Assembly: GCA_038087875.1 (NCBI GenBank)
Contig: CM075996.1
Span: forward strand, 4,528,001 to 4,592,000
Length of the DNA stretch: 64,000 nucleotides
Direction of reading: 5' to 3'
Source of the DNA: Malacoraja senta
Taxonomy: Eukaryota
Positions 14,513-60,300 of this stretch are shown here, piece after piece. Numbering within the stretch: the stretch's first letter is position 1; every line of letters starts with the position of its first letter. The notes beneath the pieces were generated by a model, which worked only from the letters and a program-made list of their open reading frames with translations, did not search any database and was not told the DNA's origin. The position numbers and the translations under genes were made by a program.

Positions 14513-17500
14513 ATGGATGTTCTGCAGATCTGTGTGATTGTGATCAGCATGTGTTTCACTGCATTCAGACCTTCCATTGGTCAAAAGCAAAACTTCGATT
14601 CAAGTCTAGAGATCTGTATCCTTTGTGGCAATGATGGGCTTTGTAAGCTCGATAATCTTCTCAAACTTACTGGAAAGTCAAGACAAACATGCCAAAAACT
14701 AGCCTCCTGAAACAGCAAGAGTGCAGTGGATTAAGGTGCAGTGACCATTTCAGGTACAGCTCCAGCCCATGCGTGCAACTAGAACTCCATTTGTATAAGA
14801 TGTCTAAATGTCGTTTAAAAGCTAGCATCATCATTCCCTATTTGCTCAATATCAATTCCTAGCATTGTAAACCAAAGCTGATACACACTAAGGTTGAATG
14901 TTTGCCCCAAATTGAGTTTCAGACTTCAATTGTGTTCCAATGACTAAGAATGACTGTTTTTACTTCCAGACCCAGCTGCATCCGAGGTTATATCAAGACT
15001 TGTCTATTCCATTGCAATTCCAACTGGTCTTTGGCATTCAATCCTTTTCAACGTGGAAACCACTCAAATCTGCTAAATATTCCTAACTCACACCGAACCC
15101 CAATCCCATTACTTTCGTGCACACTGATCAACAGTTAAGCAACGTCTCGGTTTTAAAATTCTCGTCTTTGTTCTCAAAGCCTCCCATGGCCTTGCCCTCC
15201 TCCAACTCTTTGTAACTTGCAGTGAATTTCCCCATATTACTTGCTCTGTTGGTAAACGTGCCTTCACCTGCCAGGGCATTAAACTCTGGAAGTCCTTGCT
15301 TAAATATCCTTGCCTTGACGCCCCTCTTTACTCCTTTAAAACCTATCTCTTTGCCCACTCTTTGATTATGTTCTGATTTATTTTGTGTGATAAAGCACCC
15401 TGTAATATCTTTTCTGTATTTTATGCAAACAGAAGTAGTTATTGGGTGAAGAGAGAATTGCAACGTTGGGGTTAAGTTGCTGAGCTAGCCAGAGGGCTGA
15501 GCCTTGATGACAGGCACGAGTTTAAATCGCACATTGGCAACTGGGGAATATAAGTTTAATTAAATAAGGAAATTTTGATATCTAAAACAAAAGCTAGTTT
15601 CAGTAACATTAATTGTAAAATGTTTGGATTGTCAGAAAACCCCACCTGCTTCACCATTGTGCTTTAGGGAAGAAAATCCACTGTCCTTATCTATCGTGGC
15701 AAGAGGTTGACTCTTATCTGCCTTCTCACTTCAGGGGCAATTGGGAATAGATGATAAACACTGACATATCCAGCGATGTTCATATTCTGTGAACGAATAA
15801 ATAAAGAAAAATTTCTAAACTGTGTTTCTGAATATTTTCCTGAACAACACTGGTCTTTAGATAGGAAGTTGTTTGAAACTAAACGCAAAGACCAGATGCA
15901 TGCATTGAAGAACATGATTGAATTAAATGATATAAATCAACAATACAAGATTATTGACATCATGTTGAAAGGATTATTCAAGGTGAGCAAAGAGAATTAG
16001 CTAGGATAAATTCCACAAACTTTATTAAGGTGCCTGCCACAAACTATGTAACCAGACCAAGATTCCCCCTGGCCACTCTGAGGCCAACCAAGACAGTTTG
16101 CATACATTTGCCCAATCCGACCATACATATCCCATCATCTAAACCACCTACATGACACCATCTTTCCCTGAGCTTGGATACTCCTGACACCATGGTTTTG
16201 TTACATCTAGTCTGTACTAGGATTCTAATGGGCTTTCTCTATTTACATCCTCCGTAGATTTTGAGTTCTTTTAAAATTCTGTTGCCTATCCTAATTTCCA
16301 TCGTCTGTTCATCAGCACCTTTGGTTAGTTGATTATAGCTCTTGGTCAAGCTAAGAGTTAATTGTAAAATGTTCTTTCTTTTAAAAAAAATCCCTTCATG
16401 TCTATCTCTCAGCCCTACATCTTTCTGGGATTTCTCCTTTCTCTGGTTCTGGCCTCTTATGTGTCTCCATTTTCTTTGAAACTCTCCATCACTGTTAGCT
16501 ATTCTTCCAAAGGCTGGTGACTAAGCTCTGAAACATGCTTGCTAATTTACTCCAAGTTTATTATTTCCTCTTGTTTAAGATGTTCGTCTACATTGCTGTT
16601 CTGCTATCTCATGTTGTGGAATGTCAAATATTGTTTGGAAATGCTACAGATGTCCCACTTTATATGTTATACATGGAATATTAATGCAATTTCTAAACGG
16701 CACATCATTGAGTCTCATTGTACTCGTTCTCACCCAGCAAACAGCTAACAATGGCCTGTTTCCTTTATCATCGTTACTTTTTTTGCATATTTTTCATTAA
16801 TTTGTTCTATATCTCTCTACATCATTGTCTATATCTCTCATTTCCCTTTCCCTTCTCAGTCTGAAGAAGGGTCTCGACCCGAAACATCACCTATTCCTTT
16901 TCTCCAGAGATGCTGTCTGACTCTGAGTTACTCCAGCCTTTTGTGTCTATCTTCAGTTTAAACCAGCATCTGCAGTTCCTTCCTACACATTGATCCAACT
17001 CCTTCCTCAGTCGATCCACACTATTCCTATTGATCATTGTGCAAAAAGTAATCCACTGTATTTTCTCCACGGCCCTGTCAGTAAACAAGGCAAACTGTTT
17101 ACTCTGTGAACTGCAGTATGCTCTCACTTCCTCTCCCCCATGCAGAACAAGAATAGAGTTCCCCAAGTCCTCACCTTTCAGATTCCACATTAAACATAAT
17201 TCTCTAATATTCACCTTCAACATGATTCCACCACTGGTCACATCCTCTCATCACCAATCCTTTCCACTTTCCGTAGAGACTTGATAGAGCTCCTGGTTGC
17301 TAATAATTTAATTCCCTTTCCTAAAACAACCTTCCTGTTCTTGCCCTCCTCCATTCACAGAGTGAGGCCACACGCAAACTGGAAGAAAAGTCATATTCTA
17401 CAACCCAATGACATGAACATTGAATTCTCCAATTTTAAGGAATACGCCCTGCCTCTCCTACCCTGATGTGCACACATTTCTCCCACCACTCTTCTTCAGC

Positions 17501-20500
17501 CTTCTCCTTATCCCTCCTCCCTGTGTTCATCTCCCACCCCCGTCCCCAGTTCCCTTTAATCCCACCTCTTTATCCCCCCCCCCCCAGCCCCCACCTATAT
17601 TCTTCCCTCCAGCTTTCAATTTCACTCTAATTCTTTCCTCATCTGATACGTTTTTGTTTCCTTTTCACATCAAGCCTTTGTTTACTCCAATCACCTCCCC
17701 CCTCATCTGTATTTACTACCTGCTATCATTTGCCAGGCTGGACTCCATCCCCACCTCGTTTTTCCAGCTTTCTCCCCTTCCTCTATTAGTCTGAAGATCC
17801 TGACCCAATCTATAGTCTAAATGTCACTTTTGCCAGAGTGAGGCAAACGGGAGGAACAGCACCTCATATTCCACTTGGGTCATTTACACCCACAACATAA
17901 GAATATCGAACTCTCCAATTTTAGATAACCTCTTTCAACCAACCCACCCCCCCCCCCTTCCCTCCACTTTAGCCCCAATAACTACCTTTGTTTTCCCTAT
18001 TTAAACCAAGCTCATAAGTTAGCAACAATCAGTCTAAAAGAAAGAAATCTTAATAAAAATGGGACACCATGAAAGGATGCTGTCACTAAAATCATTTCTT
18101 CATAACTGGTTTAAAAAGAAGTTGGAAAAAAATCAGTTGAAACACATTTTGATTTTTGTGCATTCCAGGTACTAGAAGACTCCAAGTCGATACTGATTGG
18201 TGCTGATGTACAAGCTGATGGACCACTACCTCATGATGAGAAACTCAAAGATGGTGGATATAGTTTGAATAAACTTTTCCTTATGTTATGCTCTGTATGA
18301 AACAAAATGATTTACAAAATTTCATTTGTCCTTTGCTTGTGAGAGAAGTAGTCATGGGCCAGTGTTGCCGCTTGACCCCGAGTCAGAACGTTGTGGTACA
18401 CGTCTCACTCTAGATTTCAGCATCTGTTCCAAGCTGATACACTTGCAGTGAATAGCAGCATTCCCTGAGGTGGCTCGATTGTAATCATGTATGGTCTTTC
18501 CACTGACTGGTTAGCATGCAACAAAAGCTTTTCACTGTACCTTGGTACATGTGTCAATACACTAAACTATCCTTTCAGGCTTGAGCTGCTGGGGACTACT
18601 TTAATTGACCAGAAAAGGATTATTTGAGAATGTTTTAATTATGCAGTGAAAAGGGTAAAACTGCTTGGTAGGCTGGTGATGATGATTCATTGATTTCAAA
18701 GGACCAGAAAGTGGGAAGAGAAAGATAGTGAAGGAGCTGACCAGTTGGTTACAACACTCCAGCGCTTTCTGTAATCCTCCAAACGTCCCTTTTCCCAACT
18801 AAGCAAGTAGTTTCAATGGGCCCATTTCTATATTGATTGGATTCTAGATTAGTCTAAGTGTCCAAAGCAATGGAAGGGAAAACAAGTTACAATCTCCATG
18901 TCTGATCATTATTCTCACTGGCATCTACTGGGAGTCTACTTGCTAACAGTATTGCAATTTCATCCAACGAACTCCTGCAGTTTAACAATGGTCAGTGTGT
19001 TCTCCAGAACTAATTAGAAATGGAGAATAACTCCCAAACTTACCAGCAGCAACCACAATTTAAGAATGAGTTAAAATTACTGGATGTAAATATTAGCTGA
19101 TTATGTTCAGCTGAATAAGGATCTCGACCCGAAATGTCACCCATTCCTTCTCCTCAGAGATGCTGCCTGTCCGCTGAGTTACTCCAGCATTTTGCGTCTA
19201 TCTTCGGTTTAAACCAGCATCTGCAGTTCCTTCCTATACATGTTCAGCTATCATTTCTGCTACAGTTGATAAAACGATCAACTGTAGCAGATATGATAGA
19301 TGAACATGTAAACCGATCCACTGTACCTCGAACAGAAAAAGGATGTGTTTCCATTGCATCTCCCTTCATTATTAGGGGGATTGTAATCTACGTATTGTCT
19401 TCTGGATGCCAGCACTTTCAGGAGCTTTAGTAAAGCTCACATGTGGAGTTCAATATATGGAATTTATAATTATATTTGCAAATTTGAATATTTTATTATC
19501 TGACATATTATCCGATATATTATTTCCAAACTGATACAAATAAATCTTTCTAACAGCCAATCCTGATTTGCTTTTCAGCTTATTCACACATTGTTGAAAA
19601 CACAGCCTTCTTTGGGGATGTAGCACTGCGTTTCCCTAAGATTGTCCACTATTACTATGACCGAAACTCTAACTGGAACAACCTAATCCGATGGGGAATC
19701 AGTTTCTGTAACCAAACAGGAGTTTTTGATGAAGGTCCTCACACTCAGCTTCTGAATCTGGTGAGCAAAAATATGTGTTTAAAGGGTTTGTTTTTAATGG
19801 AACCATTTGCATAGATGTTGTGTTTAGATACAAATTCTGGAGGAATTATACTCAGTGTAAAAGGAAAGTCAACCATCAATCTGAAGAAAAGATAACTGGC
19901 ACCACCTAGTGAAAGATTGTAGAACTGCCATCTGCCAAATAACTGAATTTAGTTTTTAGTGATACACCTTGGAAACAGGCCCTAGAACCCACCTGTCAAC
20001 CATCGATCACCCGCTCACTCTAGTTCTATATTATTCCACTTTCTCACCCACCCCCTACAAACTTGGGGCAATTTACAGAGGCCAATTAACCCACAAACCC
20101 ACAGGTCTTTGAGATGTGGGAGGAAATAGGAGCACCCGGAGTAATCCCACAGGGAGAACATGCAAACTCCACACTAGAGCACCAGAGGTTAAGATCGAAC
20201 CCGGGTCTCTGGTGCACTGAGGCAGCAGCTTTGCCAGCAGCACAATTTTTTGAAAAACAATTTATTTACATAACTTGTGTTGATGTGCTACATTCAGCCA
20301 ACTGCCCCAAACGGTCAACTGGCCAATTAAAACATGTATGCTCTACACAAACCTCCATGCACCTTTCTTCATCTAACCCTATTATTGTACACGTCTGCGC
20401 AGCAGGTTAGGGCTTCTGCCTCACAACACCAAAGAACGGGTTCAGTCCTGACTGGGTGCTGTGTGTGTGTGGAGTTTGCAAATTTTCTCTGTGCATGTGG

Positions 20501-27570: not shown

Positions 27571-29184
27571 GTGTAGGTTGTTCTGTTAATTGGCCATTAC
27601 CATTGGAGTTAATTGGAAATTGCCTCCAATTTGCAGTTGAGTGGTAGAAGCTGGTTGATGGGCTTACGGAGAGAATAAAATGAGAATAAAATTCAATCTG
27701 AAGAAGGGTCTCGACCCGAAACATCACAAATTCCTTCTCTTCAGAGATGCTGCCTCACTCGCTGAGTTACTCCAGCATTTTGTGTCAACCTTCGATTTAA
27801 ACCAGCATCTGCAGTTCTTTCTTACACAGAATAAAATGGGATATGTGTAAATGGTTATTTTATCATCAGCAGAGATTTTGTGGAAGGGCCTACTTTTGTG
27901 CTGTACACCTATATGCACCCCCTCCAGATATCCCAGCATGTAACATTGTTAAGGCAAGTTTTAAATTACATAGCAATGGCTTTTATCGATGGCATGAATA
28001 TTGTTTGATTTAAATTTTTTTTAATTCCAAGAAAACCTGAGGGGCTGTTATTGATTAAAACTTAAATTCAAATACCAACTACAATGCAACAACGACAGTC
28101 AAAAAAACTTAAAGCAGCTCTGTGTGTTTTATATTGTTGACAGGTTTCATAAAGTCCTTTATTCTTGAACTCTGCTTTTCCTTTCCCTGAAAATGTTCAT
28201 ACATGATGGAAATTTTTAATGTTAACCGGTTTAACCTTTCTAAGTTTCTATTTGACTTACACTGAGTAAGATGTTGCATGTGCTTTCCCCTGATTTTCCC
28301 TTCAGTCATTGCTATACATATTTGCCTACTTTAGCATCTCCACCCATGACTTAATGGTTACTAATGTTGATTTCAAGATTACAACATCTCATCTCCCAAT
28401 ATCTCTCCATATAAATAAACTCCCTCCTTGCCTTTTCCGGCATTTTTATGACTGATAAATAAATGTGTTAAAAGACAAAATAATATCCAGGAGTTGGAGA
28501 GTTATGAACCTTGTATTATGAAGACCTTTTCCTGTACTCTTTGATTGTAATATACATCCTTACCACAAGGATATACAAAGCCTGGAAAATAAATATGGTA
28601 TAAACAAATAAATAAACAGGATGAAAAAGGTGTAATTAGGTAGAAAAAGGAAGCAGAGTAAAAATATTTGAGATGCAAAGGTAAAATAAATTCTACAATC
28701 CTGCTTCTGTGCTCTGATGATTTGCATTTCAATGGCAGTCAAGGGCTGAAAGGATAAAAAGTGCTGGAGTAACTCAGTGGGTCAGGCAGCATCTCTGGAG
28801 AACATGGATAGGGATCTTCCCTACAGCCATCAGGCTATTAAACACAGCAACCTCCAAATAAGCTCTGAACTACATAGACCTGGGGGCATTGGTTTTGTCT
28901 TTTTGCACTATTATAGTTTGTTTGTTTTATGTGTGCGTGAGTATGTACACACACGTGTATCATTTATTATATTGTTTACAGAGTACTATGTTTACATATT
29001 ATGTTGTGCTGCTGCAAGAATTCCATTGTTCTGTGTAGGAAGGAACTGCAGATGCTGATGATGATGAACACAAAATGCTGGACTAACTCAGCGGGACAGG
29101 CAACATCTCTGGCGAGAAGGAATTGGTGACTTTTCGGGTTGTTCTATCTGGGACATATGACAACTCAAACTCAGTGCATATTAT

Positions 29185-30337: not shown

Positions 30338-33300
30338 ATGGAGAACGAAGACATGTCGCTTGAAAATATGGACCCCTCACTGACTGAGTTCAGTGAGGGA
30401 CTCAATTTTGGGGATATAGATGGTGAGTCGATATTTTGCCCAGCTTACCCGATCTCTCAGGATGGGATACACCTGGATATTGGATGTCACCCATCGAAAA
30501 TATATTGTTTTGAATATATGTGTGTGTGGAAAGTGGGTATAAGGTATTTTTAGTTATTTACTTTCCTTAGCGTTAGGGGTTAATTAATAAGAGGTAATAA
30601 GTTCAGTGTGGCGATTGAATATATCACGACTTTGCTACTTATGTAAAATAGTGAATCTCATTTTGTTGATCAGTGTTTCTTGTCTTCAATCATACTCATT
30701 GTGCCCATGCTGGCTAATAAAATGCGATTGAGGCTTGTTCCATTTTCCAGTTACTGCTTGGCATCATTGTACAGCAGATCGAGCTCATCTAGGTTCTTTT
30801 TAAATGTGTCGAAACCTGCTGCCTCCAAAAGACTTTCAGGCAGTGAGTCATTTTTCCTGAAGATTCTGTTCATAAGTAAGTTATTCTTAAATCTGTGCCA
30901 ACTGATTATTCATCTTTCTGCTTAGGTTAACTCGCCTGTACCTATTACCTTATCTGTGTATAATTGAATAAAAACGTAAATAGACGTGGAAGTAGGGCAA
31001 TCGGCTGTCAGCTTGCTCTGACATTCCATAAGACTATGGCTGGTGTTTTCATTCAGCACCGTTTTCCTGTACTAACTGCTTAACTATTGATTTCCATAAC
31101 AATATAACTTTTGGATTCCAAATCCAAGACCCTTATGGAATTGTGTCTTATATATACAAAGCTAGTGAGCCCCCATATCCACTGGATGATGTAATTTCTT
31201 CTGTCCCAAATGATTGACTTCCAGCCATGGTAAACATCCTCTTGAAATAGAGACCAATTTACCATTTATTCCTAATTGTTTCCTGTATCTGCATGTGCCC
31301 GTGTTATACAAGAATGCCGAGGTCTTCCTGAACACGTTTCTTTAAGTCTCTCACCTTTATAAAGAAAATCTCTGCCTTTTTTATTTATTCCACCACTTTG
31401 CATTCTCCTCCATCGGCTGATTACCTTTCATTTAGCCTGTCCATATTCCCCTGAAGCCTCTCTGCGTTATCCTTCAAACTCATAATTTTATGCATCTTAC
31501 TTAAAATTCCCCTCCAGTTCTTCTGTTCAATGAAAGTATTGCCAAAGATGGACACGAAATGCTGGAGTAACTCAATGGGACAGGCAGCATCTCTTGACAT
31601 TTGGGTGACATTTCGGGTCAAGACCCTTCTTCAGACCGAGAGTCAGGGGAGAGGGAGACAGAGATAAGGAAGGGTAATGTGTGAAAATGGGACATTAAAG
31701 GTGATGAAGTTTAAAAAAATGTAGAATAGATTATTGTTAGCTCGGAGAAGGTGACAGCGAGGCAAACAGATAAAATTTAATGGGGGACAGTTAGACTGGT
31801 CAGAGAACTAGGAAGCAGGAGGGATAGACAGAGGGAAAGCAGCGGTTACTTTAAGTTAGAGAAATCAATATTCATACCGCTGGGGTGTAAGCTGCCTAAG
31901 TGAAATATGAGGTGCTGTTCCTCCAATTTGCGCTGGGCCTCACTGAGTGGAGGAGGCCCAACGCAAATGGAGTGGAGGAGGCCCAGGGTACAAAGGTCAG
32001 TATGGGAATGGGAGTAAAAGTCAAAGTGTTTAGCAACTGGGAGGTCAGGTAGGTTTAGGCGGACTGAGTGGAGGTGTTCAGCGAAACGATCGTCGAGCCT
32101 GCACTTGGTCTTGCCGATATATAGGAGTCCACACCTGGAACAGCGTATGCAGTGGATGAGGTTGGAGTAAGTGCAAGTGATCCTCTGCCTCACCTGAAAA
32201 GACTGTCGGAGTCCTTGGACAAAGTCAAGGGAGAAGGCAGAGGGATAGATGCTGCATCTCCTGCAGTTGCAGGGGAAAGTACTTGGGGAGGGGGTGGTTT
32301 GGGTGGGAAGGGACGAGTTAACCAGGAAGTTGCAGAGGGAATGGTCTCTATGGAAAGCAGAAAGGAGTGGCGATGGGAAGATGTGGCTAGTGGTGGGATC
32401 CCGTTGGAGGTGATGAAAATGTCGGAGGATTATGTGCTGTATGCGATGACTGATGGGATGAAAGGTGAGGACTAGGGGGACTCTGTCCCTGTTGTGACTG
32501 GGAGGAGGGGAGCAAGAGCTAATATTGCCAATCTTTGCCTGTACCTTGGCCAATAACCTCATTAAACTCTCCTGAGCCCTTACTAGTGTGGGCAGCCCTA
32601 TAACCATCCAAGATAATGGTGGTCCACTAATTTTGATCACTTGCTCACCCCAAGCATCCTTCATTAATGCCAAAGATTCAGACATCTCAAATGTATAAGA
32701 TCTGGATCTGTGTAGCTAATGTCCCATTTTATTTTTTTAGGGCGGCACTCGTTTCCTTAAACCTCTTTGATTAAGTTTTTGGCCAGATACTCCAGCAATT
32801 CACTTGTTTATGCTCTCAACTCCAACCCTCTGTTGTTGGCACATTTAGAAATGTAGCTTTCATTTCCATCGTTCAAATTATTAACACACATTGTGAGGAG
32901 CTGGGGCCCAATCATCGATCCCACTAGTCATTGCCTGCCACCATAAGAAAATCCTATTTATTCATACTGTTTCCTGTCTGTATACCACTTTTCAATTGGT
33001 GGCAGTGTGTACCCTAATCCCACATACTTTAATTTTGCACATTACCTGCCATGAGCCACCTTATCAAAGGTCTTCAGAAAATATAAATTAATGCACACCC
33101 ATTATCCTTATCTATTCCAACAGTTACATCCTCAACAAACGAATGAACTTCAATAAGTTAGTTAAATGCGACTGCTTTTGTAACTCTACATTGATTTTTG
33201 TCTGACCCTGTTGATATTTCCACCTGAAATATTTTACTTCCGTGTTCTTAGATGTTACAGGTTAATAAACCTGGATACCTAACTGCAATGGGATAAACAG

Positions 33301-39300: not shown

Positions 39301-42300
39301 AATGACGTGCAGCAAAATTATAAGACAGTATCTCAACTCTTTTTACACATTGCAATGAATGCAATTTCTATTAGTTCTTTCCACTTCCAAACAAAAATGT
39401 GGTTGGATTATTCAGCGTATGATCAACCTGTGTCAATAAATCCTGGACCATGGTAACATATATGCGTACATATAGTTATGAATGTTGCTCATTAAATAAC
39501 TACAGTACTGATACTCCATATTAAGAACATTGATTTGCCGTTTAAAATGAATTCTGTAATAACGTGTCAACGGCAGCAGTGACAATCGAACACTGCGGTT
39601 TTAATGTTTCACGTGTTCACAATTTAATTAATCCATCTTTATGGATTAAAACAAATAATAACATTGGGAATTAAAACACATTTGATTGCATACCGTTATC
39701 AAACATAGTCAGTGTTCTCTCTGAAGGACATTTCCAGCACAATAGGGTCAGGGAGGGGGGTGTGTGTGAATCAGTACGGGGTGGATAGGTGGGGGGAAGG
39801 GGGGTTAGAAGGCAGTCGGTGCAGAAATGGATGGATTGAGGCAGGTGAATTAGTACGTGTTGGTTGGAGTAGGTAAAATTGTGAGGGGAGAGCACCGGGG
39901 ATGTCAGTGGTGTTGAATGGGGGGGTTCAGTACGGGATGGATGGGGGTAGACAAAAGTGCTGGAGAAACTCAGCGGGTGAGGCAGCATCTATGGAGCGAA
40001 GGAAATAGGCAACGTTTCGGGTCGAGACCCTTCTTCAGACTGTTCCCCCCATTCTTCTTGAATGGGAGGATCAGTACAGGATGGATGGGGGGGGGAGATC
40101 AGCGCAGGATGAATGGGGGGGGTCAGAACAGTGTGGATCGGAGGGTCTGTGCAGGATGAATGGGCGATCACTACAGGATGAATGAGGGGAAGGGGGGAAG
40201 GTGCAGGGTAAATGGAGGGTGGGTCAGTACGGGATGAATGCGTGGATTAGTACAGAATGGATGGGGGATCAGTACAGGATGGATGGAGGAGAAGTGCAGG
40301 ATGGATGGGAAAGTGCTAAGTACAGGGTGAATTGGGGAAACCAGTTTAGGATGGATGGATGGGGGGGGGGGGGTGGCAGGAGAATCAATGCGAGGTGGAT
40401 AGGGTGATCAACGCAGGATGAATAGATGGGAGGGGGGGTAGATGGGGAGGGGAGCACAGGGGATGTCAGTGAGGACTGAATAGAGGCGGGAACGGGGATC
40501 AGTGCGGGATGGAGTGGAGGGGTCCCAGGATAAGGGTGGAGGGGCGTACAAGAGAGAGAGGGAGAGGGGGGCGAGGTGGGGAGGAAGGAAGGTCAGCGCT
40601 CCTCGGACAACATCGCCCCGCTGCCTTGACCCTTGGGAACTCCTCGCCACCGCCTCCCTCCTCCTCCAGCCAACAGGTAAGGTGCGGTGCCGAGCGGTGC
40701 AGCTCAAAGATCCTATAGCTATAGGATCTTTGGTGCAGCTGCTTCAGAAGGGTCGGAGCGAATGACGGGCCCCGCACAGCGGCTCCATCTCCTCCTCCTC
40801 CCGCCCCCCGCCCGCCCTGATAAGGGCCTCTGCTTGTAAATCCGGTAATGGCACAAAACAAACCCTCCCGCACGCCGAGGCCTCCCCCTCCCTCCCTCCT
40901 CCCGGCCTCGGAGTGCGGGAGGGTTTGTTTTGCGCCATTACCGGATTTACAAAGCAGAGGCCCTTATCAGGGCGGGCGGGGGGCGGGATGAGGAGGAGAT
41001 GGAGCCGCTGTCGTGGCCACTGCTGCCGCTGTGCGGGGCCCATCATTCGCTCCGACCCTTCCTCACCCCGCACCTAGTATCACAGCCGCCGCAGACAAGA
41101 AACGTCGCGTTCCTTTTCTCCAGAGATACTGCCTGACCCGCGGAGTTACTCCAGTTTTTTGTGTCTATCTTCGGTACAAACCAGTATCTGGTTGCCAAGC
41201 CGGGCAAAATGACTCGGTTTAGGTTGCCCGGCGGAGCTTTGAGTGGTCAGTGGCACCCGGGCAACCGCTAATTTCAAGCCCTGTGTTATGAGGAGGAAGA
41301 AAAAAAAAGATTTTTTCCGAAAATATATTTTCTTAACTTTAGATAAATTTCCCGATTTTCAATGATATCCCACTCGATTTAAGCCACAATACTTTGCTTT
41401 GTGTCTATTAACTTGTATTCCAATCATTGTGATTTGTGAATCTGTCTTCCTGGAACAATTTGCTCTTTCCCACTCAGGCTCTTAATTGTGGCCCTTCCCT
41501 GCAATCAAATGAAGTTCCTCATCATCTACCTATTTGTCAAATGTATATATATAGAGTTGTGCATTGGGTGGTGTCTGATTAGAAACATAGAAACATAGAA
41601 AATAGGTGCAGGAGGAGGCCATTCGGCCCTTCGAGCCAGCACCACCATTCAATGTGATCATGGCTGATCGTTCCCTATCAATAACCGGTGCCTGCCTTCT
41701 CCCCATATCCCTTGACTCCACTAGACCCTAGAGCTCTATCTAACTCTCTCTTAAATCCATCCAGTGACTTGGCCTCCACTGCCCTCTGTGGCAGGGAATT
41801 CCATAAATTCACAACTCTGGGTGAAAACGTTTTTTCTCACCTCAGTCTTAAATGACCTCCCCTTTATTCTAAGACTGTGGCCCCTGGTTCTGGACTCGCC
41901 CCACATTGGGAACATTTTTCCTGCATCTAGCTTGTCCAGTCCTTTTATAATTTTATCTGATTTAATTGAAGAATAAGGAATGTTACAATTGTTTCTGTTA
42001 ATAACTTGGTTTTACTTACTTTAATCTTGGATATTTTTATAGTTCTTCAGTCCCAGCTACAGAACCTGGTCACTTCCTCACAGGTGCAGCCAATCACCTT
42101 TCAGCAGCAAGTGCAGGGCCTGTCAACCCACAGGATGCTTACATCAGCCACCACAGGCACCATTCAGACGCTAACCCCTGCCACCACCACCACCACTGTC
42201 CGAACACACGCACCACAGATGCAGCAGGTTCCTGTAAGTATGCTTTTTCCAAAGGTCCAAGTCACCCATTTACTTGTTAGACGACTATTAAGTAGGAATA

Positions 42301-48300: not shown

Positions 48301-51300
48301 ATGCTCTTAGTTTTGCTGGTCTTCCATTCCTTAATTAAATAACTCAAATATGTCTGAAAATATCTATTGTGTTAATTATTGGCTTAAATATGGAATGTTC
48401 TTCCTCTAAAAGGTTATATATGGTAGATGGTAGGATATCAATATCCTTTTGATAGGAAGAAGCATCAAAGCGTGTGTAGCAAAGGTGGATAGATGGTATA
48501 AGAGTATAACAGGCACAAAGGGCTGAATGACCGACTAGGTAATTACAAAGAAACCTTTCTCTACAGGTAAAGGAAGAGCCATTGTCACCCCCCACCTTCG
48601 GAATGCTGGACAGCTCTCGGATTCTCCTGTGCACCCTCACCTTTCTTTGTCTTTCCTTCAACCCACTTGCTTCACTTTTTCAACGTCGAATGCATTCAAC
48701 AGCACCTGAAGATTCTGGGCACCCTGGTAGAAGTATGCTGGGAATGGAGACTGGTAAGCATTGTTTCATAAATAATCCTGTGGTGAAATACATTTTTTTT
48801 AAATTTGAGATTTTTTACATTTACCTACCAGAATTTCCTTTAGGTGAACATATCATTCTTAATGACTTGTTTCTGCGCTGTTTCTGCATTCCTTCAACTC
48901 TCTATTTCCTTTGTTCATCTTTTATCATCTGTTGAATATCCACCCATCTGCCAATCAACCCCCTCCCCCCACCCCCCCCACCCCCCGCCACCTATATCTA
49001 TCTGTCACTTGTCAGGCTTTGTCGTATTCCACCTCTCTTTTCCAACTTTCTCCCCTCTACTACATCCCACCCCCCTTTTCCAGCTTTCTCCTCCACACCC
49101 CATTTACAATCAATCTGAAAAACATCACCTATCCAGTCCCTCCATCGAAGCTGCTTGACCCGCTGAGTAATCGAGCACTTTGTGCTTTATTTAGAATATT
49201 TAAGTTTAGTCCATTCTCCCATCTCAACAATTTCCATAGGTTTTTGGTCTTCTGAAAAATTCTCCTGCCAATTTTGGCATTTCTCATTTGAGCCCTACAT
49301 CTAAATCGTTGATGAATCCACTGAACAGGTGTGACCTCAAAGTACAGCCATTGTTTGCATCCCACCGTTAAAAATACTCAATACCTTTTTTCCCCACGTA
49401 ACAATTTTCCTCTTGTAGCCAATCTTTCCCCTCCTGCTGACTCTTTTATCTTTAGAGTGCTTTATCTTCTGTAATCTCACCATCAGTGGTAACTTGTCAC
49501 AGACTTAATCACAGCATTTTCACAATGTATTGCAGCTGTTACCTCAGGTAATTCTTGGAAGGGTGTGTGCACAATTTCCTTTGAAATTTTGCTTTCTCTC
49601 GCAGCCACTTAATTTGTGAAAAAAAAATATTTCTTGTATCTTAGTAAAATATTATGTGCCTCTTGATTCATCTTTAAATAGTTCCCCTATAAATGTATCT
49701 TAATCTCTTATTTATTTGCTCGGGTTTTGTTTTTCATTACAGGTACAGGAAAAAAGCAACAATCAGAAGTCTGGTCCCTCTTGCCTGCACTGCCATTCAT
49801 TAAGATCAGAGATGATCTTTTACCACAGCACAACTTTCCTGTCCCATGTTTCTTGAATCCCTTAAAAGATATAAATCCAGCATACACATTTCAACTCTCC
49901 ATATCGCTGAATGGATGCAGATAAAATTATACTTGGCAATGCTAAGGTCAAAAAACAAAACAAGAGTATTCTAGATCTAATCATTTGTTAATATTGATTA
50001 CATTTTGAGTCTTGACTAATGGATGTAACATATGTCCTGAAGCAATTGGGCAGTGTTGGTTTTAGTTTATAACATATATATATTTTTATATTTTAGAAGG
50101 CTCCAAAGGCTGGTTTGATTGGATGCTACCTACCCTAATCCTCTGGCTGGTGAACGGTATCATTGTGCTGAGTGTATTTATTAAGCTATTCATTTACGGT
50201 GAACCCATCACCCGTCTGCATTCTCAGTCCTCTGTTACATTCTGGAGATATCGCAAGCAAGCAGACCTGGATCTGGCCAGGGTAAGAATTACATTTGGAA
50301 AAGTGAGTTGGTGGGGGGGGGCGGGGGGGGATGCTGGAAATCTGAAATAAAATCTGTTGGAAGATTAGGTTGGGAAGTTGAAATACTCTGCGACTACAAA
50401 CCTATTAGTCTTGTTATAAGTAGCAAGCAAGCAACCTGCTTCTTGACCTATGAAGTTTGAGTTGCACTGATCACGTGCAATGTGGCCACATAGTATTTAA
50501 CAGACTTGTATGTTCTGCTCTTGACACTTTGCAGTGTAGGTTTCAAATCCTGTAAGAACTGATCAAGATTATAATCTTGTGGTTGTGAATCTAACGTGGA
50601 ATGATTTTTGAGATTCTTAACTCTGTTCCTAGTCAGCATTGACAGCTTGACATTGGCCCCTGTATGGAAATTTCACGCAAAGTTCATTGGAAGGCAGGCG
50701 TTAGAAATGAAGGAAAAAAACCCTCTGGTTTTGGTCCAAAAGTAGTGTTTTACAGATGGGGGATGTGTTTGGCTAGATGGCTGGAACTTTAATCTGCTGT
50801 TCTCTGTATTAAATTGATTTGAGATCTTGTTTATGGAATTTTTGGCACCAGACTATTGTACACTAAAGGAATCTGTAGCTCAGATGGACCCATGATAAAG
50901 ATCTTTATAATATTTATAACATCTTTACATTTAGTGCCATGGGACCTGGTATATGAATTTTTTTAATTTGTTGGCAGACAAAAATGCTGGACAAACTCAG
51001 CGGCTGAGGCAGCATCTATGGAGCAAAGGAAATAGGCAACGTTTCGGGTCGAAACCCTTCTTCAGACGCTTCTTAAAATTTGTTGTAAGGATATTAATGG
51101 ATACAACAAAATAATAAATGTCCCTTGAGATCAGGAATATTCTGCTGATGATCCTATGCATATTATGTAGACACAGATGCTGGAATCATGAGCAAAGTGC
51201 TGGAGGAACTCGGCGAGGGGGGAATGGACAGACGATTTGTCAGATCGCAGACTTTCTTCATACTCAAGAAGGGTCCTGACCCAAAACTATGTACATATAA

Positions 51301-54300
51301 TTAAATCGGGGATGAATTTTCCATTGCAGGGTGCCTTTATTGCAGCTGCAGGAAACTTGCAAACATGTTTGTTGGTGCTGGGACGTGCACTGCCGGCCTC
51401 CCGGTTTGACCTGGCCTGTAGCCTCTCCTGGAATATCATTCGGCACAGCATTCAGAAGCTGGTGTTTATGCGTTGGCTGCTGAAGTGGACAAGAGGGTTT
51501 CGGCAAGATGCACAGCTTCAAGAAGAAGCCAAAATGAGTGCACGAGATGCTGCACTGGTGCATCATAAACTCCATCAACTGCAGTTGACAGGTATTGGTA
51601 ACATGATGAGCGTGATAACATTTCGCTGTTCATTTGACCTGATTGCATAAAGGGAAAGCTGGGGTTGAAATGTTATGGCTGCACGTAGATTCGGTGACCT
51701 CATTGCAGTTTATGGTACCTTTGCAGTGTGCAAAATGTTCACTGCTCTAATTACAGAAGGATTAGACCACATGGCTGAATCATGGGAAATTATGATGTCC
51801 TCCTTGAAAAGACTGTTTCCAAATTCTTCTTTGTGTTTGCATTTTCTTCTCCCAGTGACTATTGTTGTGATGGGGATAGAAGCGTATAAAATGTATCCTA
51901 TGATATAGAGCTCCATATGAGGCCTAAAATTCTGAGGGCTTGTCATGGTTTTATCGAGTCTCATTATTGCCTCCGAGCTTCTTTATTCCATACCTCTAGG
52001 GGGGGGAAGCCTGGATTTTTTTGTTTTATTTTTTTTTTGAACAGCATGCTGAAAAGCTACCCTCACTCAGAGATTTCTACCCCAGGCTTCTTCAAATAGT
52101 CTACAGCCTGACGCTCCTTCCATTCAGAAATCAAAACTGCTATTTGCTTTCTTCATATACACTTTATATTTTATAATGCACTTATTGACTGATTTCTACT
52201 GTAGCCGATTAGTCTTTTTTGTTACAACGTTATTAATTATTTCAGCTGGATACTGCGATCCAGTATTATAGAAATTATTCAAATTATGAAAGGCTTGGAC
52301 AGAGTACTTAGCAACAGACTTCAAGTGTCCTGAAAATTTGTTTTGACCATCCTTCGCCTGGAAGCCATATCAAGTTCATCCGAAAAGTGCAAAATAGGAA
52401 ACATTTAGTTGATGCCAATTCTTTATCTGCATTTCTTTTGATTTTAGATAAAGTGGTGCAAGGCCCTGTAAGTGCCATAAATCTAGCTCTGTCTGCAGTT
52501 AATCTAGCCGAGTGTGCAGAGGAGAAAATCCCCCAAAGTCTCATGGCGGAAATCTATATAACTGCTGCCATTTGTCTAAAAAACAAATTTAGTGGCAGAC
52601 TCTCCTTCATGTTGGTAAGTAGATACTTTGTGCTGTGCTTGGTTGTTACGAATAAGTTAGTAAGATATAGTTTTAATAAATGGTTTTGTGTCCAATTTCT
52701 GGGAGAATATATTGTTCATTCAGTGTCTAATGTATGAGGCACTGATTGGACCCTTCCGCAGACTCATACATAGGCAGGTAGAGATGATTGTTTATAGGCA
52801 ACTTCCAATGCCGGTATGGAACCTTGAATGATGAAAGATGGTTCAAGTGTGTACCTACAACATTGAAATCCTAATTCTCCAATCAATGCTCATCAATGCC
52901 AAGAATGTGCCAACAGAAGAACATTATGAAGTTATCCGTTCCTCTCAATTGCAAATGTTTAATAACTGAACTTTGTTTATTTTGTTACTGGGCCAAAACT
53001 CAGTGATCAAGTTGATATGCTTGTGGTTTGTGTATTACTTATGTTTTTCATGCTCACAGGGTTATTTCCTGCGTCGAGCCCAGCGGGTTTGCCAATCTCC
53101 GTGTGGTTCTGACCCCGGCACCTGTCAATGGCTTTTCCATCCTCTGGGACGCCGTTTCTTTGTGGATTGTAATTGGACGCTTAAATCGGTTCCTAAGGGA
53201 AGTCTCTTCAGCTCTCCAAGGAACCCGGGTAAGGAGTGTTGTCCAAGATCCACAAGTACACAGTCCTCAACAATTCTTCTGAATTATAAAGAAATGCATA
53301 TTTTAAAATTCTCCAGATGGCTCAGAGTTTCAGTAATTAAACTATTTTTTTTTGTTCACATCGTTCAGGTGCTAAAATCTAACAATAAAAAAATACAAGA
53401 AAATAGTAGATATGTGAACACATGCTTGGATTAATAATACTTGAAAATGCAAAGAAGAAAGAAAATAGGGTGGTGAAGGGGAGTTTATATTGTCTGGCTC
53501 ATTGGAAGAGTCACAGTGTTCTCTACTTAGAATCCAATCATTACTATGTCTGGTCAACACTGGAGCAATACAATTTGACCAAAAGAGAGCAAATTAACAA
53601 GTTAGGTCAAGTATATTTCGAGGAAACACAAAGAATCTTGAGCAAAACGCAAAGGGCTAGAGTAACTCAGCAGGTTAGGCAGCATCTGTGGAAGGAATAG
53701 ATAGAGGATGTTTCCAGTTGGGACCCTTCTTCAAACTCAGATTCTTCAGAATATTTCATGATAGCGCACAGCTTCAGTTCTTCTCTTGTATATTAAGTAA
53801 AAATCATCAGCAGGTGGGACTTGTGCAGATGGGGCATCTGGGTCAGCATGGGCAAGTTGGGCCGAAGGACCTGTTTCCATGCCGTAAGATGTTGAGGTCA
53901 GGCAGCATCTGTGGAGTGAGATATAGTTAATGTTTTAGTTCAATGTTGTGAGGAAGCCTCATAAACCCGAAACATTAGTTTTGTTTCACTCTCCACAGAT
54001 GCTGTCTGACTTACTGAAGATTTATTCACTCTCCACAGATGCTGTCTGACTTGCCGAAGATTTATTTCTAGCATTTTGTTTTATATTTCCACCAAATGAA
54101 GTTTATTTGGCTTTTTTGGATTCAGGATTTTTTGACAAATTTGGAACCATTACTTGCTATTCTTTGGTAAATTACACATGGACGGCAGCATATGGTGCAA
54201 GTAAAGAGAGCTATATTATATAGTTGCACAGTGAGAAATTGACTAAGAAAATCTTTTTTTAATATCACATAATTTGTAACACAAAAAATTATAAGGCACT

Positions 54301-57300
54301 TTGCCAGAATGCTATTGATCAAAATTTCACAGATTTCAAAATTTCCAAAGGTCTGAAGAAGGGTTTCGGCCCGAAACGTTACCTATTTCCTTCGCTCCAT
54401 AGATGCTGCTGCACCCGCTGAGTTTCTCCAGCATTTTTGTGTACTTTCAAAATTTCAAGGTTGACAACTGAAGGTTTGATCAAAGAGATAGGCGTAAAGT
54501 AGAATTTTAGTAGAAGTAGACCTGCATTGAAAGAATCATCTCTAGAAACCATGTATTTGAATCTCCCATTGATGCAGGAAGTGAACCCTAATACAAGATT
54601 TTTTATGTCATACTTTTTGTGTTACTCTGTAGACTGAGTCTGTTGTACCAGTGTATTTTATACAATACATAATTTGCATCCAATCTTGAAGCTGAACTGG
54701 AGATGCTAATCATTGTGATTTATACTTTGCCTTTCGCAGTTGATCCAGTAGCCCAAGTGAACCAAGCCTTTTGTGAAAATTTGCTTGAGAAAGCTGTATA
54801 CTCGCTGGTCAAACCAGAGGTTGAGGATGCGGGGTATGTACACTGGCCTAATGTAAGTGGTGGGGAGGGGGGGTTATATGGGGTAGAATGAATAGCTGAA
54901 GAAAAGCTTGGCGAAAACAATTCCTTCATTTCTTGGACGGTGAATGGCTTTACAGAAAGGCAATTGGTAAATTGAATAATTCTTTATTGTCTGTTTCTAT
55001 GCGAGGTAAAGGATTTTAATATAAATGGAATGAGGGATAATTAGTTTTGTGGGAAACTTGCATTTTCCCGTCTCTCCATGGTAAATAATTGGAATCAAAC
55101 AACCTTTTTAAGGGCCTGTTCCACTTAGGCGACTCTTTAGGCGACTGCCAGGGACTAGTTTTAATGGAATTCATCTATGACACCTGGCGACAACCTACAA
55201 TATCACCTACGTCAACCCACGACAACACCTACGATAACCTACGACAACAAAAATTATCGCCACTGTCGCTGAAAATTTTTCAACATGTTGAAAATTTTGC
55301 AGCAGTCGCCTGTAGTCGCCCAAAAAATCGCCTAAGTGGGACAGGCCCTTCAGAAAATGTCACGTATTTAAAAAGTCCTGACTTGACCCTGACATCAGAA
55401 AAATTGGTCCTTGGTTCTGCAGGATAAACGTTCCAGTCTAGCTCTTGGGAGGAACAGAATATTTGATTAAATTCCTGCAGTTTGTTGTCTTCAAAATAGA
55501 ATCAAGCAGGCATTATATTTCCTCCTACTCTTAATTCTTGGGAATTAACTCTCCGCTTAGATTTCTTTGTTTTTGTTTTGGAAGAGTTTTAGATTTGATT
55601 GTTTTAGCACTGTTTTGTCCTGCCCCAGTAATATCATTTTTGGTGAATGAAGGCAAATCTTAACCAAAATGAGTCCGAGAATGCTGTACCATTATAAATT
55701 ATATTATTCACAAAGATTACATGAAAATCCAAAATTCCATTTTGGAATCATAAACCTTTGCCAGTATTGAAATAAAGGGATAAATGGGGATTTAGAAAAT
55801 TCTCCATCAGACTTCAGAAATGCAGCGCGGAAACAGGCCCTTCGACCCACTGAGTCCACACTGACCAGCGATGTCCCGTACGCTACCACTATCCTACACC
55901 TTAGGGGCAATTTTTTTTTTTTGCTAAAGCCAATTAACCTACAAACCTGTATGTCTCTGGAGTGTGGGAGGAAACTGGAGCACCCGGAGAAACCCCATAT
56001 GGTCACAGAATGGAGAATATATTCATTGGCATGAATATAAGTATGATTTAGCATATCATAAGTACAAGTGTACAATTTCAGGAACCAAGAATAATATGAT
56101 TCTCAGCAGTCTGAAGAAGGGTTTCGGCCCGAAACGTTGCCTATTTCCTTCTCTCCATAGATGCTGCTGCACCCGCTGAGTTTCTCCAGCACTTTTGTGT
56201 ACCAATGATTTATTATATGATCTGCTGAGTTGAAGATGATTTTAAGTGGAAGATCTATGTTTCATTGCCAATCTCCAAACTAAACTAAAATGTATTGTCT
56301 ATTGCAGAGAATTCTCCAATGCTTTTGAGTATTTACAGTTACTTAAAACTTGTGCTGACACAGCTGGAAATTGGACACAGGCATTTTCCATTGATTCCAG
56401 TCTGAGGAGAACTGCAGGTGAGAGTTTGGCTTTGGAATGATTTGATTTTGGGTCAATGATTAAAAAATGAGCAGAATAATCAATTAAAGGCAGTGATGTG
56501 GGTAAATGCCATGTTCCCCATCATATGAACATTAGACATAGGGGCAGAATTAGGCCATTCAGCCTATCAAGTCCATTCCGCCATTCAATCATGGCTGAGC
56601 TATATTTCCCTCTATATTTCCCCCTTTTTCCTGCCTTCTTCCCGTAATCCTGAAGCCCCACTAATCAAGAACCAAATGGAATCAATCTCCGATTTAAAAA
56701 ATACCCAATGACTTGTCCTTCACCACAATCTGCGGCAATTAATTCCACAGATTCACCACCTTCAGGCTAAAGAAATTCCTCCTCATCTTCATTCTAAAGG
56801 TGTGTGCTTTAATTCTGAGACTGTGCCCTTTGATCCTAGTCTCTCCCACTCCTGGAAACATCCTCTCCACATCCACTCTATCTAGATTCAGATAGATACC
56901 CATTATTCAGTAGATTTCAGTGAGATCCCCATTGTCCTCTTCCTGCTTTGAAGGAGCATTCTTGATGACTCTGCAAACAAGTCTGTGCAGAAATTACGTT
57001 TTGGTTTATTTTTGAAGGATGCGGACATAATGTGGTCAAATGAGAGTAGTATAGATGGGCAAAATGGTCAGCGTGGACTTGATGGACCGAAGGGCACACA
57101 AGTGTGCTGTATGTCTCTGATTTCAATTTCTGTCATCCCCTCCAATTGAAATGGTTTTTTTGTACAATATTTGCCATTCCCTTGAGTTATCCTGAGTCCC
57201 CATGATCTCCCATCTCAACCAATGTTTGATGGATTGCTAGCAAAGAACTACTAGTTCTGAAACTACTTTCAATAATTTCATCAGATAGTCTTCAAACTTT

Positions 57301-60300
57301 TTAATGCCTTTGAATGGTAAAATGCCTTGCTTCAAACCTAAGCTACATGTTTTGTATTTATACAAGCAACGCAACCATTTTGCATTGGGGAAACAAAAGT
57401 AACTGCTTGTGTTAGTAAAATATTTTTTCTAATCACTTTATCAGGTCCCGATCCTGTCAGTAAATGGTGGGCATCCGTTGTCGTGTTTGTTGTACACTGG
57501 CTTCAGGGTGACGATACAACAGCAAAAGAATTGTTCACTGAAGTAGAACGGATACCCAAATCTCTGCAGATGGCTGAGTATGTCAGTGTTTTATTTTTCT
57601 CATATTAAGTGAAGGTTGATACCTTAAGCAGTAGGCAGTGAATTTGGACGTGAAATAATCCCGTTGCATGTACAGAGTTTTGTTTTATAAATTTTTTCTT
57701 CTTCTTTCTTCTTCCTTTCTTCTTCTTTCTTTCTTCCTTTCTTCTTCCCGCCCCCCCACCCTGCATCAGTCTGAAGAAGGGTTTAGGCCCGAAACGTTGC
57801 CTATTTCCTTCGCTCCATAGATGCTGCCGCACCCGCTGAGTTTCTCCAGCATTTTTGTCTACCTTTGCTTTATGAATGCTCTGCTTTAAAGGAAATAAAG
57901 TTTTTTCCTTTGGGCGACACAGTTGTGTAGCGGGTAGAGCTGCTGTCTCACAGCACCAGAGACGCAGGTTTGATCCTGACCTCGGATGCTGTCTGTATGG
58001 AATTTGTTCATTTTCCCTATGACCGTGTGGATTTTCTCCGGGTGCTCCACTTTCCTCACACGTCTAAAAAAAAGTGCGGGTTTCAAAGTTAATTGGTCTT
58101 TGTAAATTCCCCGTGGTGTGCAGTGAGTGGATGAGAACGTGAGATAACAGAACTAGTGTAAACAGGTGAACGATGTTCGGAGTGGACTCGATGGTCCAAA
58201 GGGTCTGTTGAACACTACTAACTCCAACTAAACTACAAACTGCCTTGGTGCACTAGGGCTTTGTTTTGTTTTGCACTACATTGGATGTTTTACTTATTTA
58301 ACATGTTTTTGTTTGTTTATTATGTTATCTATTGAGTACTGGATTTACAAACCTGTTGTGCTGCTGCAAGAAAGAATTTTCCATTTTAGTACATATATTA
58401 ATTCAACACAAGATAGACATAAAAAGCTGGAGTAACTCAGCGGGACAGGCAGCATCTCTGGAGAGAAGGAATGGGTGACGTTTCGGGTCTAGACCCTTCA
58501 GACTCTTTTAAAAAAAGACCAGCTCTGCTAGGCGGAATAGTGTTAGTAGAGGGAAATTGGATGGTTCTGCGGTCGAGGAAGAAACGGAAGAGTTTAAGGT
58601 CTTCCTGGTGGGGGAATGGAGGGTGGGGTTAAACACACTTGATATGGAGATGCAAGGAATGGAGGGACTGATTATGTGCAGGAGATACGAATTGGTCAGG
58701 CAGCGGGACAGGCAGCATCTCTGGAGAGAAGAAATGGGTGACGTTTCGGGTCGAGACCCTACTTCCAGGGGTGAAGTAGGGTCTCTACCACTTCCTGACG
58801 AATTCAATCAACCTGGCGAGCACTAACAGAAAATCAAACAGAACAAGTTGTCTTACAACTTTAGGCTGTGCACGCCATACGCAAGAAGAAGAAGAATAAG
58901 ACCCTACAAGTGAAGCTGTTCACCCACCATGTAAAACTAGGGGGCGCGAGAATTATAATTGCAAACAATCTAATCGTCATTTATTCTTCAACAACAGTGT
59001 TAATCCAACTCTGCCAGAAAATATTGATTTTTTTGTTGTCACCATTGCATAATTTATTTTTTCTCGTCTCCCAAATATAGGAGCTCACTGCCAAAGGCTA
59101 TTCTTCACATCTGCAAAGCGATGCAGACAACTCTCTTGGGGAAACGAGATGCTCACCAGACAACGTTCCTGCGCTGTGAGAGGGCCAGTGGATATCTATG
59201 CAACAGTTTGTCCGTCTCTAGCCCACACCAGGATACAAAGCTTCACCAGGTACGGAGCTGTTCGTTGGTGCCATCCCATTGTTTCATATGGTTTCTGCGC
59301 CTTAGCAATAGTAATGAGGTTCCTGCATCTCAGCAAACACTTGCATTGTCCAAACTGCAGCTTTAAAACCTACAAATCAGCCATATTGCAGTAGAAATTC
59401 TGCTGCTTTTGTAATTAAAGCCAGGGCAGAAGTGTGCTCAGGTCTTTCAAAAATGAGATGGTGGCCTCTGGGGTGCATTGTAGTTGCATTGCATGTGCCA
59501 GCGATGTTGTGCAATGTGTCTGCAGTGCAATACAGAGGTGTGCCCTGGGCATCGGCAAGTGAACACGATTCACCATAATCGAGGTCTTACAATTAGTTCA
59601 TGGCTGGTGATGTCTTTTCACCATGAGGCCAAATGTGCAAGGTTTTTAACTGCACATCTGACCTTTCTTGAGCAATACCCAGCCTTGAATATGTCTGTCA
59701 AAGGAAACAGGCCACTTTACCCAACTGTTATAAGCTTGTAGTTGCACGTATAACCTCCCATCAAATACATCTCTGCTATTTATTTACATGGTATAAAGGA
59801 TAGTGAGTCCTGCAATCCCACCACTAAGAAAAAATATCTTCCTGATTTCTCCATTTGTCGTATTGATATCATCAAATAGATATGGATCCTGATGGTTCAG
59901 CGTGTGGCTCACTGGTTAGTCTGGAATGTGAGTCGATGGTCAGGGATGCATGAGGGCCATGCGCCTGAGTGAGGGTGTGGAGTTTAGCTGAGGCTGGGCT
60001 CCAGCTGTGGGCCTGGTGTGCAGTTGGAGGGAGAGTTGGGGTCCCAAACACCAGAGGTCAGGAGCAAGGCTGGAGTCGAGGTTCAGACTGCTTTTATATT
60101 TCCTGCTCCCTTTTATACTCATTTACACTGGAAAATTTACTACAGTGCATAACATGTTTAAGGAAAAGCAATAGAAAAGTTTGCCAGGGTTTTGGAGTAA
60201 CAACCAAGGTCTGGTAAATCTGTCAGTCCAGCTCTACCAAAGTCCCAAGAGCAGTGGACAATCAAAGTATTTTGAGCAACCTTGCAGATGCAATAATATG

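Follow-up and report, generated by a model that had tools for sequence, protein, structure and literature searches.

Small hammerhead-ribozyme motifs are scattered through the introns of SREBF2, CCDC134 and TOM1 in the 64,000-nucleotide stretch of Malacoraja senta DNA analysed here (the window), and the question raised by this locus is whether they cut the pre-mRNAs in which they are transcribed, as an earlier note had proposed for SREBF2, or were left there by a mobile element. The reading that best fits the data, to which we assign a probability of about 0.87, is that the motifs are the pseudo-LTR (pLTR) hammerhead of a young and abundant Neptune-type Penelope-like element (PLE), and that the copies in host genes are separate insertions of the element's end, likely neutral passengers that are predicted not to cut host RNA usefully.

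The host genes were matched to SREBF2 (HLH/SREBP exon), CCDC134 (family PF15002) and TOM1 (peptide), all on the plus strand. Our own exon count agreed with the earlier note in placing the three sense copies in SREBF2 introns 12, 13 and 15, where their intact cores span 3,418 nt. Human SREBF2 has 19 exons, with miR-33a in intron 16. The features used below are as follows.

4494..4630, plus strand: stub of an older subfamily, with tail, in a TOM1 intron (4498 copy); it retains both boxes and ACGU, has GUC as its site and a helix I of 1 bp, and is flanked by a 9-bp repeat.
8089..8198, minus strand: decayed copy (8195 copy), G12 lost, adjoining an inverted tail piece at 8204-8230.
16835..16990, plus strand: stub with tail in a CCDC134 intron (16861 copy), palindrome lost (ACAU), from BLAST and tabulation.
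19107..19243, plus strand: stub with tail in a CCDC134 intron (19111 copy), G8 lost, 8-bp flanking repeat.
27693..27828, plus strand: stub with tail between CCDC134 and SREBF2 (27698 copy), palindrome lost (ACAU), 11-bp flanking repeat.
31545..32553, minus strand: 5'-truncated older PLE, a decayed frame followed by a hammerhead with C3 at 31634, both boxes retained and a GUC site.
39946..40042, minus strand: intact-core copy antisense to SREBF2 (40038 copy), from BLAST, descriptor and tabulation.
50971..51067, minus strand: intact-core copy antisense to SREBF2 (51065 copy), from BLAST, descriptor and tabulation.
53647..53741, minus strand: old antisense copy in intron 12, transcribed ahead of the focal copy, from BLAST.
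54334..54345 (left) and 54445-54456 (right), plus strand: 12-bp target-site duplication flanking the focal stub.
54349..54384, plus strand: minimal type I hammerhead of the focal copy, with C3 at 54353, UUCG loop, GUU, predicted cut after 54380.
54351..54444, plus strand: solo pseudo-LTR stub in SREBF2 intron 12, the focal stub.
56107..56202, plus strand: second sense stub, intron 13 (56111 copy), intact core, GUU, 2-bp helix I, 91/94 identical to the autonomous 3' end.
57766..57863, plus strand: third sense stub, intron 15 (57771 copy), intact core, UUAG loop, 2-bp helix I, 90/94.
58402..58505, minus strand: antisense copy in intron 15 (58500 copy), first box broken, short of 3 nt, from BLAST and tabulation.
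58701..58765, minus strand (to 58770 in the duplex calculation): truncated antisense copy in intron 15 (58765 copy), without CUGA, from BLAST.
59468..59535, plus strand: mir-33 precursor in the next SREBF2 intron, from Rfam, given for context.

When the sequence was re-read and tabulated, every motif in the earlier list was recovered at its position, including the intact cores at 54353, 56111 and 57771 (plus) and at 40038 and 51065 (minus). The family is indeed dense, and denser than that list: BLAST of the 64-kb window with four window copies as queries gave 30 merged fragments. Five of the 11 tabulated copies combine the two catalytic boxes with a helix II of 4 bp, the palindromic ACGU and GUU as cleavage site; in each of them CUGAAGA is followed by an unpaired A, a helix II with G10.1-C11.1 as its closing pair, GAAA, ACGU and GUU. 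The unpaired A followed by the G10.1-C11.1 pair is present in 11/11. This A had been regarded as a possible defect; it is a published hallmark of the PLE minimal hammerhead (min-HHR), the unpaired base between 9 and 10.1 being one of the four conserved traits named in PMC4209133. The CUGANGA and GAAA boxes with an NUH site are those of the PLE min-HHR, and the identification as Penelope-type minimal type I hammerheads, in which helix III can form only in a dimer, was upheld. The 15.2-16.2 palindrome is CG in seven copies and shows CpG-type decay (CA, TG) in the other four, with no loop III.

Helix II was found to consist of 4 bp with a 4-nt loop (CUCG, UUCG, or UUAG at 57771), and not of 5 bp with a 2-nt loop as first drawn. 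Its pairing is kept across variants, as had been claimed, but through one-sided change only (U-G to U-A), and no two-sided compensatory change in helix II was seen among the window copies. The very short helix I (2 bp formable from the element) was also borne out, except that the focal copy at 54349-54384 has 4 bp; because the outer 2 bp come from flanking DNA rather than from the element, this longer helix is an accident. Folding in context gave a predicted occupancy below 5% for the 4-bp helix II and 2-bp helix I. A compensatory distal extension of helix I (CUAU/AUAG in 11 copies, CUCU/AGAG in 6) was considered and is unproven, as the commonest class (21 copies) needs another register. The 57771 copy is preceded by a long pyrimidine tract ending in CAG.

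A generic minimal-hammerhead descriptor gave 75 matches in 1,816,405 bases, all from this PLE family, and 0 matches in each of three shuffles, confirming that the window motifs are real and not due to chance. At gathering thresholds Rfam reported no hammerhead in the window, its sole match being mir-33; since its models look for more complete helices, the lack of a match does not count against the hammerheads.

For identification of the source, the motif was followed through the 1.94-Gb genome. Exact matches numbered 19,101 for the 28-mer of the focal copy and 57,686 for the intact-core pattern, against 0 for the reversed-pattern controls. A coding frame was found upstream of longer family copies, and two frames that are open for 1,224 and 1,222 aa from stop to stop carry a reverse transcriptase (RVT_1, E 6.5e-6) and a GIY-YIG endonuclease (E 1.5e-3), both matches lying under Pfam's cut-off; YIDD and LIY..YIGET motifs are visible in the autonomous frame, and a CX4CX2C linker is read before the endonuclease. 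The element runs in the order pLTR (hammerhead, about 65-105 nt, tail), ATG, frame, stop, 117 nt and pLTR again. Its in-frame ATG lies at +163 from C3 and its frame comprises about 1,200-1,270 aa, containing the RT, the linker and GIY-YIG. Downstream, C3 was found 117 nt past the stop in 4/4 loci; upstream, the same motif preceded the start of the ORF in 22/30 loci, 291-293 nt before the ORF-start query, and hammerhead pLTRs thus stand on both sides of the PLE ORF. One contig (C562) holds a tandem with a period of 3,996 nt (9062 and 13058), and 1,555 head-to-head junctions were counted at the 5' boundary of the core; the family also has a tail with two 3' end points, besides partial tandems and inverted copies. 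ORF identity was 97-100% in all 112 scored matches (of 115,405 candidates), which makes the family very young. Within the window itself, a decayed thumb/linker/GIY-YIG frame with its stop at 31846 (minus) stands ahead of the 31634 hammerhead and is 63% identical to the autonomous protein over 232 aa. An origin of the hammerhead motifs in a PLE pLTR is thereby confirmed.

In Craig et al. 2021 (PMC8557442), a CX2-5CxxC linker sets Neptune and Nematis apart from Penelope/Poseidon; assignment to Neptune rather than Nematis would follow from the linker together with the host group, the repeats themselves pointing to a cartilaginous fish, probably a skate. With the Neptune-clade EN+ PLEs described there the family shares a single ORF with RT and C-terminal GIY-YIG, the linker, CCHH-type residues, partial tandems, inverted 5' copies and an optional tail, and it differs in the great length of its protein (about 1,270 aa from the ATG), the N-terminal half of which is repetitive and rich in proline. 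The hammerhead agrees with the metazoan PLE min-HHRs of Cervera and De la Pena 2014 (PMC4209133) in type I topology, CUGANGA/GAAA boxes, unpaired 9-10.1 base, G10.1-C11.1 pair, palindromic 15.2-16.2 and absence of loop III, and likewise in being present in each pLTR and in having most of its copies dispersed as solo motifs. Helices II and I measure 4 and 2 bp here, as against 7-8 and 4-5 bp in Schistosoma (2 bp is given for D. virilis); the exact-core count compares with 4,000 copies in coelacanth and 9,000 in Xenopus; and the youngest subfamily here, unlike those min-HHRs, has a GUU site. Poseidon PAc of Anolis (Frangieh et al. 2024, PMC11167929) has the same pLTR hammerhead, two 3' end points a tail apart and uncleaved template RNA, although the PAc ORF starts inside helix II, whereas the ATG here is 163 nt past C3. 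The non-LTR retrozymes of a recent preprint (bioRxiv 10.64898/2026.07.22.740005) are also non-coding derivatives of PLE pLTRs with type I hammerheads; those are head-to-tail arrays, whereas the window copies are dispersed solo stubs with flanking repeats. The kind of element, a min-HHR in the pLTR of a Neptune-type PLE, is therefore already published, and this family is a further member. Literature searches found no paper on a hammerhead-PLE motif from skates or sharks, although the supplements of PMC4209133 and of the 2026 preprint may list motifs from cartilaginous fish; none is named in the portion of the PMC4209133 main text covered, and one chondrichthyan was sampled in the covered portion of the preprint.

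The earlier note had set conservation of the core above that of the flanking repeat as a test of function. Among 452 copies in 9 clusters, of which the 7 with at least 15 copies were compared, both boxes are kept in all 7 clusters, the single exception being a CpG-type loss in an old one. Change concentrates in loop II and the linker, helix changes being one-sided, but downstream blocks are kept equally well, so that the core is not uniquely conserved in this genome.

The origin of the short stubs was examined from their ends. In 106 of 181 core-bearing copies the upstream sequence is shared with no other copy. When 89 young copies were anchored on their downstream part, the 5' end fell 1-7 nt before C3 in 37, although mismatches to the reference copies may account for part of the -7 class, and in none did it fall at +27 to +29, the start that self-cleavage of the RNA would give; the ORF-start loci, of which 1/30 begins at +31, are uninformative here. 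At the other end, stubs terminate in clusters near +92 or +130 from C3. The sequence just before C3 fits the initiator consensus, and is also compatible with a splice acceptor, as in D. virilis Penelope. No common upstream exon, indicative of a spliced template, was found among the 105 copies not ending in native TCAG, a result more in keeping with an RNA start or a point of fold-back. As a further lead, the accumulation of 5' ends just ahead of the core may mark where the element's RNA starts, in which case most stubs would be complete copies of the first 95-135 nt of its mRNA.

These ends are compatible with a mechanism in which the element protein would nick AT-rich DNA and reverse transcription would begin inside the element RNA, at about +92 or +130 from C3, the two internal priming sites lying a tail apart. 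Copying would then run back through the uncleaved hammerhead and mostly stop 1-7 nt before C3, and such an early stop would give a stub of 95-135 bp. Internal priming and copying through an uncleaved hammerhead are described for the anole element in vitro (PMC11167929).

The focal stub matches the autonomous 3' end at 94/94 positions, and the remaining four intact copies match it at 85-91/94. For this copy alone the orthologous site was compared, using DNA runs from three relatives. In one (X21) a single contig joins 54333 to 54455 with 5 letters between, and in a second (X22) a single contig joins 54331 to 54455 with 7 letters between; for the third (X24), no bridging contig was present among the pieces listed. 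From the 12-bp duplication and the site empty in two relatives, the 54353 copy is a recent, lineage-specific insertion, and the conservation at the orthologous place that marks a domesticated ribozyme is lacking for it in 2/3 runs. Contigs of a further run (X1, possibly RNA and from another organism) cover exons 12 and 13, although contigs cannot show RNA ends. The SREBF2 location of the stubs looks accidental. The amniote RECK and CTCL intronic hammerheads (PMC6155905) and the CPEB3 ribozyme (PMC10919898) are likewise self-cleaving motifs in sense orientation within introns, but each of those occurs once, is conserved between species and works as a monomer, whereas the copy here is one of tens of thousands and missing in close relatives.

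Folding of the three SREBF2 copies in 140-nt contexts was used to estimate the cost of adopting the hammerhead form, with energies that disregard tertiary contacts, proteins and co-transcriptional order. At 37 °C this cost is 3.9, 8.9 and 12.8 kcal/mol, and still more at 15 °C, owing to pairing between a downstream CCUUC and the GAAGG in the first box; the focal copy, with its gained 4-bp helix I, is the cheapest of the three to fold. The ACGU/ACGU duplex joining two copies contributes -1.7 kcal/mol, whereas duplexes with the antisense pieces (53647-53741, 58402-58505 and 58701-58770) are predicted at -101 to -142 kcal/mol, including -107 kcal/mol for the 53647-53741 copy with the focal copy and -142 kcal/mol for the 58402-58505 copy with the 57771 copy. 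The 1.7-kb spacing is not itself too long for pairing, since partners in a native tandem are separated by about 4.0 kb. Across such a distance, two hammerheads in tandem RNA of the element itself would pair via ACGU, probably only with the element's protein; intronic stub RNA would instead fold into the GAAGG/CCUUC hairpin or pair with an antisense copy, and the intron would be spliced out before slow cleavage matters. In the published accounts, as far as covered, a PLE minimal hammerhead shows no activity as a monomer and little as a dimer or trimer (PMC4209133), the anole hammerhead does not cleave without the element's protein and no RNA-seq ends fall at its site (PMC11167929), and slow intronic ribozymes leave splicing unchanged (PMC10919898, citing Fong 2009). 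Trace activity of the SREBF2 copies is nonetheless conceivable.

If sense copies cut their host transcripts, selection should thin them, and strands were compared on this rationale in 1,752,405 intronic bases lying between same-strand CUB or spectrin exon matches, gene strand being taken from these Pfam matches rather than from annotation. The sample held 681 family copies (326 sense and 355 antisense), and those with intact cores were divided 45 to 45 (95% CI of the sense share, 0.40-0.60); with 90 intact copies, a mild cost of sense copies is compatible with this result. Pairs of intact copies within 3.5 kb comprised 7 sense-sense, 2 antisense-antisense and 8 mixed, sense-sense pairs thus being no rarer than antisense ones. 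No intact sense triplet within 3.5 or 5 kb was present in the 1.75-Mb intron sample, and a Poisson estimate gave 72-471 same-strand triplets genome-wide; the SREBF2 trio, with same-strand intact copies in 3.4 kb, is uncommon.

The intact copies were also divided by cleavage triplet. GUC cleaves better than GUU. In the first set, GUC copies numbered 12 sense and 23 antisense and GUU copies 17 and 8. A replicate on 600 kb of new loci, with the hypothesis fixed beforehand, gave 6 and 9 for GUC and 9 and 5 for GUU, in the same direction with p=0.27. When the sets were pooled, the deficit of sense GUC copies (18 vs 32, p=0.065) was not significant, GUU copies leaned to the sense strand (26 vs 13, p=0.053), and the two triplets differed (Fisher p=0.0055) in what was a post hoc split. 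Comparison of GUC-intact with core-broken copies gave p=0.14. We regard the sense depletion of GUC as a weak lead and not as a finding; the three SREBF2 copies carry GUU regardless.

Among the alternatives to the passenger reading, the one that survives best is that the hammerheads keep a low activity in host pre-mRNA, mostly in GUC copies and perhaps in germ-line cells that contain the element's protein, that selection slowly removes intact sense copies, and that those in SREBF2 are tolerated as the weaker GUU type. The pooled GUC-GUU difference, the preservation of the boxes across subfamily majorities and the cleavage of the anole element with its protein (PMC11167929) speak for this, but with a split made post hoc, a replicate short of significance, no clear difference between GUC-intact and non-intact copies, a GUU sense excess that it does not explain and 0/89 copies starting at the cut site, we consider it unlikely. 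The same low standing applies to its stronger form, in which GUC copies would cut host pre-mRNA in vivo and be purged from sense introns, the youngest subfamily's switch to GUU lowering the cost.

A shade less probable is an effect on the host through other signals, the pyrimidine tract and CAG being used as a cryptic acceptor site for splicing or as a promoter start, or duplexes forming within introns 12 and 15. The sequence ahead of the 57771 copy, the Penelope pLTR promoter (PMC2377424), the D. virilis Penelope intron that ends at the 5' end of helix I (PMC4209133) and the strong predicted sense/antisense duplexes would suit it, against which stand the lack of a common upstream exon in 105 copies and of any family-wide strand bias; such effects could coexist with an origin of the copies as pLTR stubs. 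Cleavage of SREBF2 pre-mRNA during transcription by three sense copies pairing in cis, tuning SREBP2 or miR-33, is unsupported and highly improbable, for although three intact sense cores lie within 3,418 nt, at a spacing below the native 4 kb and with a 4-bp helix I at 54353, that copy is missing from two relatives, the partners are separated by exons 13-15 and have GUU sites, the active fold is predicted to be unfavourable and rare beside stronger antisense partners, strands stand at 45:45 with sense pairs undepleted elsewhere, and published in vitro activity is weak (PMC4209133 and PMC11167929).

The significance of the passenger reading is limited in that the kind of element is known and its place in SREBF2 looks accidental. 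Should the GUC skew hold across the whole genome, it would demonstrate that selection acts against the cutting of host RNA by ribozymes, and purging of GUC copies, if true, would be the first genome-scale sign of PLE hammerhead activity in cells. The role of PLE hammerheads is called unclear in PMC8557442. Being very young, with full-length frames that are open and about 58,000 copies of the exact core, the present family is useful and suits two questions in the literature, namely the role of the PLE hammerhead and the origin of the short stubs.

For intact-core copies of the Penelope-like element (PLE) family, strand was compared within the intronic sample (L035–L210) according to cleavage triplet. 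GUC copies leaned antisense (18 sense versus 32 antisense) and GUU copies leaned sense (26 versus 13), but the replicate set taken by itself did not reach significance. Family density differed approximately threefold between two CUB-domain genes, with 30 copies in 230 kb of one (L128–L150) and 156 in 370 kb of the other (L091–L127). The protein of the autonomous element (L031, 2628–6302) has a long, proline-rich N-terminal half containing a repeat of ~26 amino acids, whose copy number varies among genomic copies.

Three further features were recorded in the window:

24604–26079, − strand: piece of a LINE reverse transcriptase, read in two neighbouring frames, in the interval from CCDC134 to SREBF2
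53990–54051, + strand: fragment from the PLE pseudo-LTR family, duplicated in tandem (40 bp), SREBF2 intron 12
55055–55350: repeated element with inverted ends, SREBF2 intron 13, at high depth in the runs of relatives

The last of these is probably a small non-autonomous DNA transposon. SREBF2 exon 2 (37839–38543, + strand) encodes a long glutamine-rich repeat with units such as QQQLVQQQ; this repeat exceeds in length those known from other vertebrates.

Genome-wide, 1,555 head-to-head junctions were counted in which inverted copies lie 0–6 nt apart at the 5′ boundary of the hammerhead core, as where two copies meet at C1:5164121–5164143. Stub 5′ ends were concentrated 1–7 nt ahead of C3, the reference position in the first catalytic box (L214, comprising C3 and the preceding 7 nt). 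Judged by its sequence, this short stretch fits an initiator-like and a splice-acceptor reading alike. At the third stub, in SREBF2 intron 15, a long run of pyrimidines with CAG at its end is retained on the SREBF2 sense strand (57690–57770, +). Situated ~190 nt past exon 15, this tract may be a cryptic splice acceptor.
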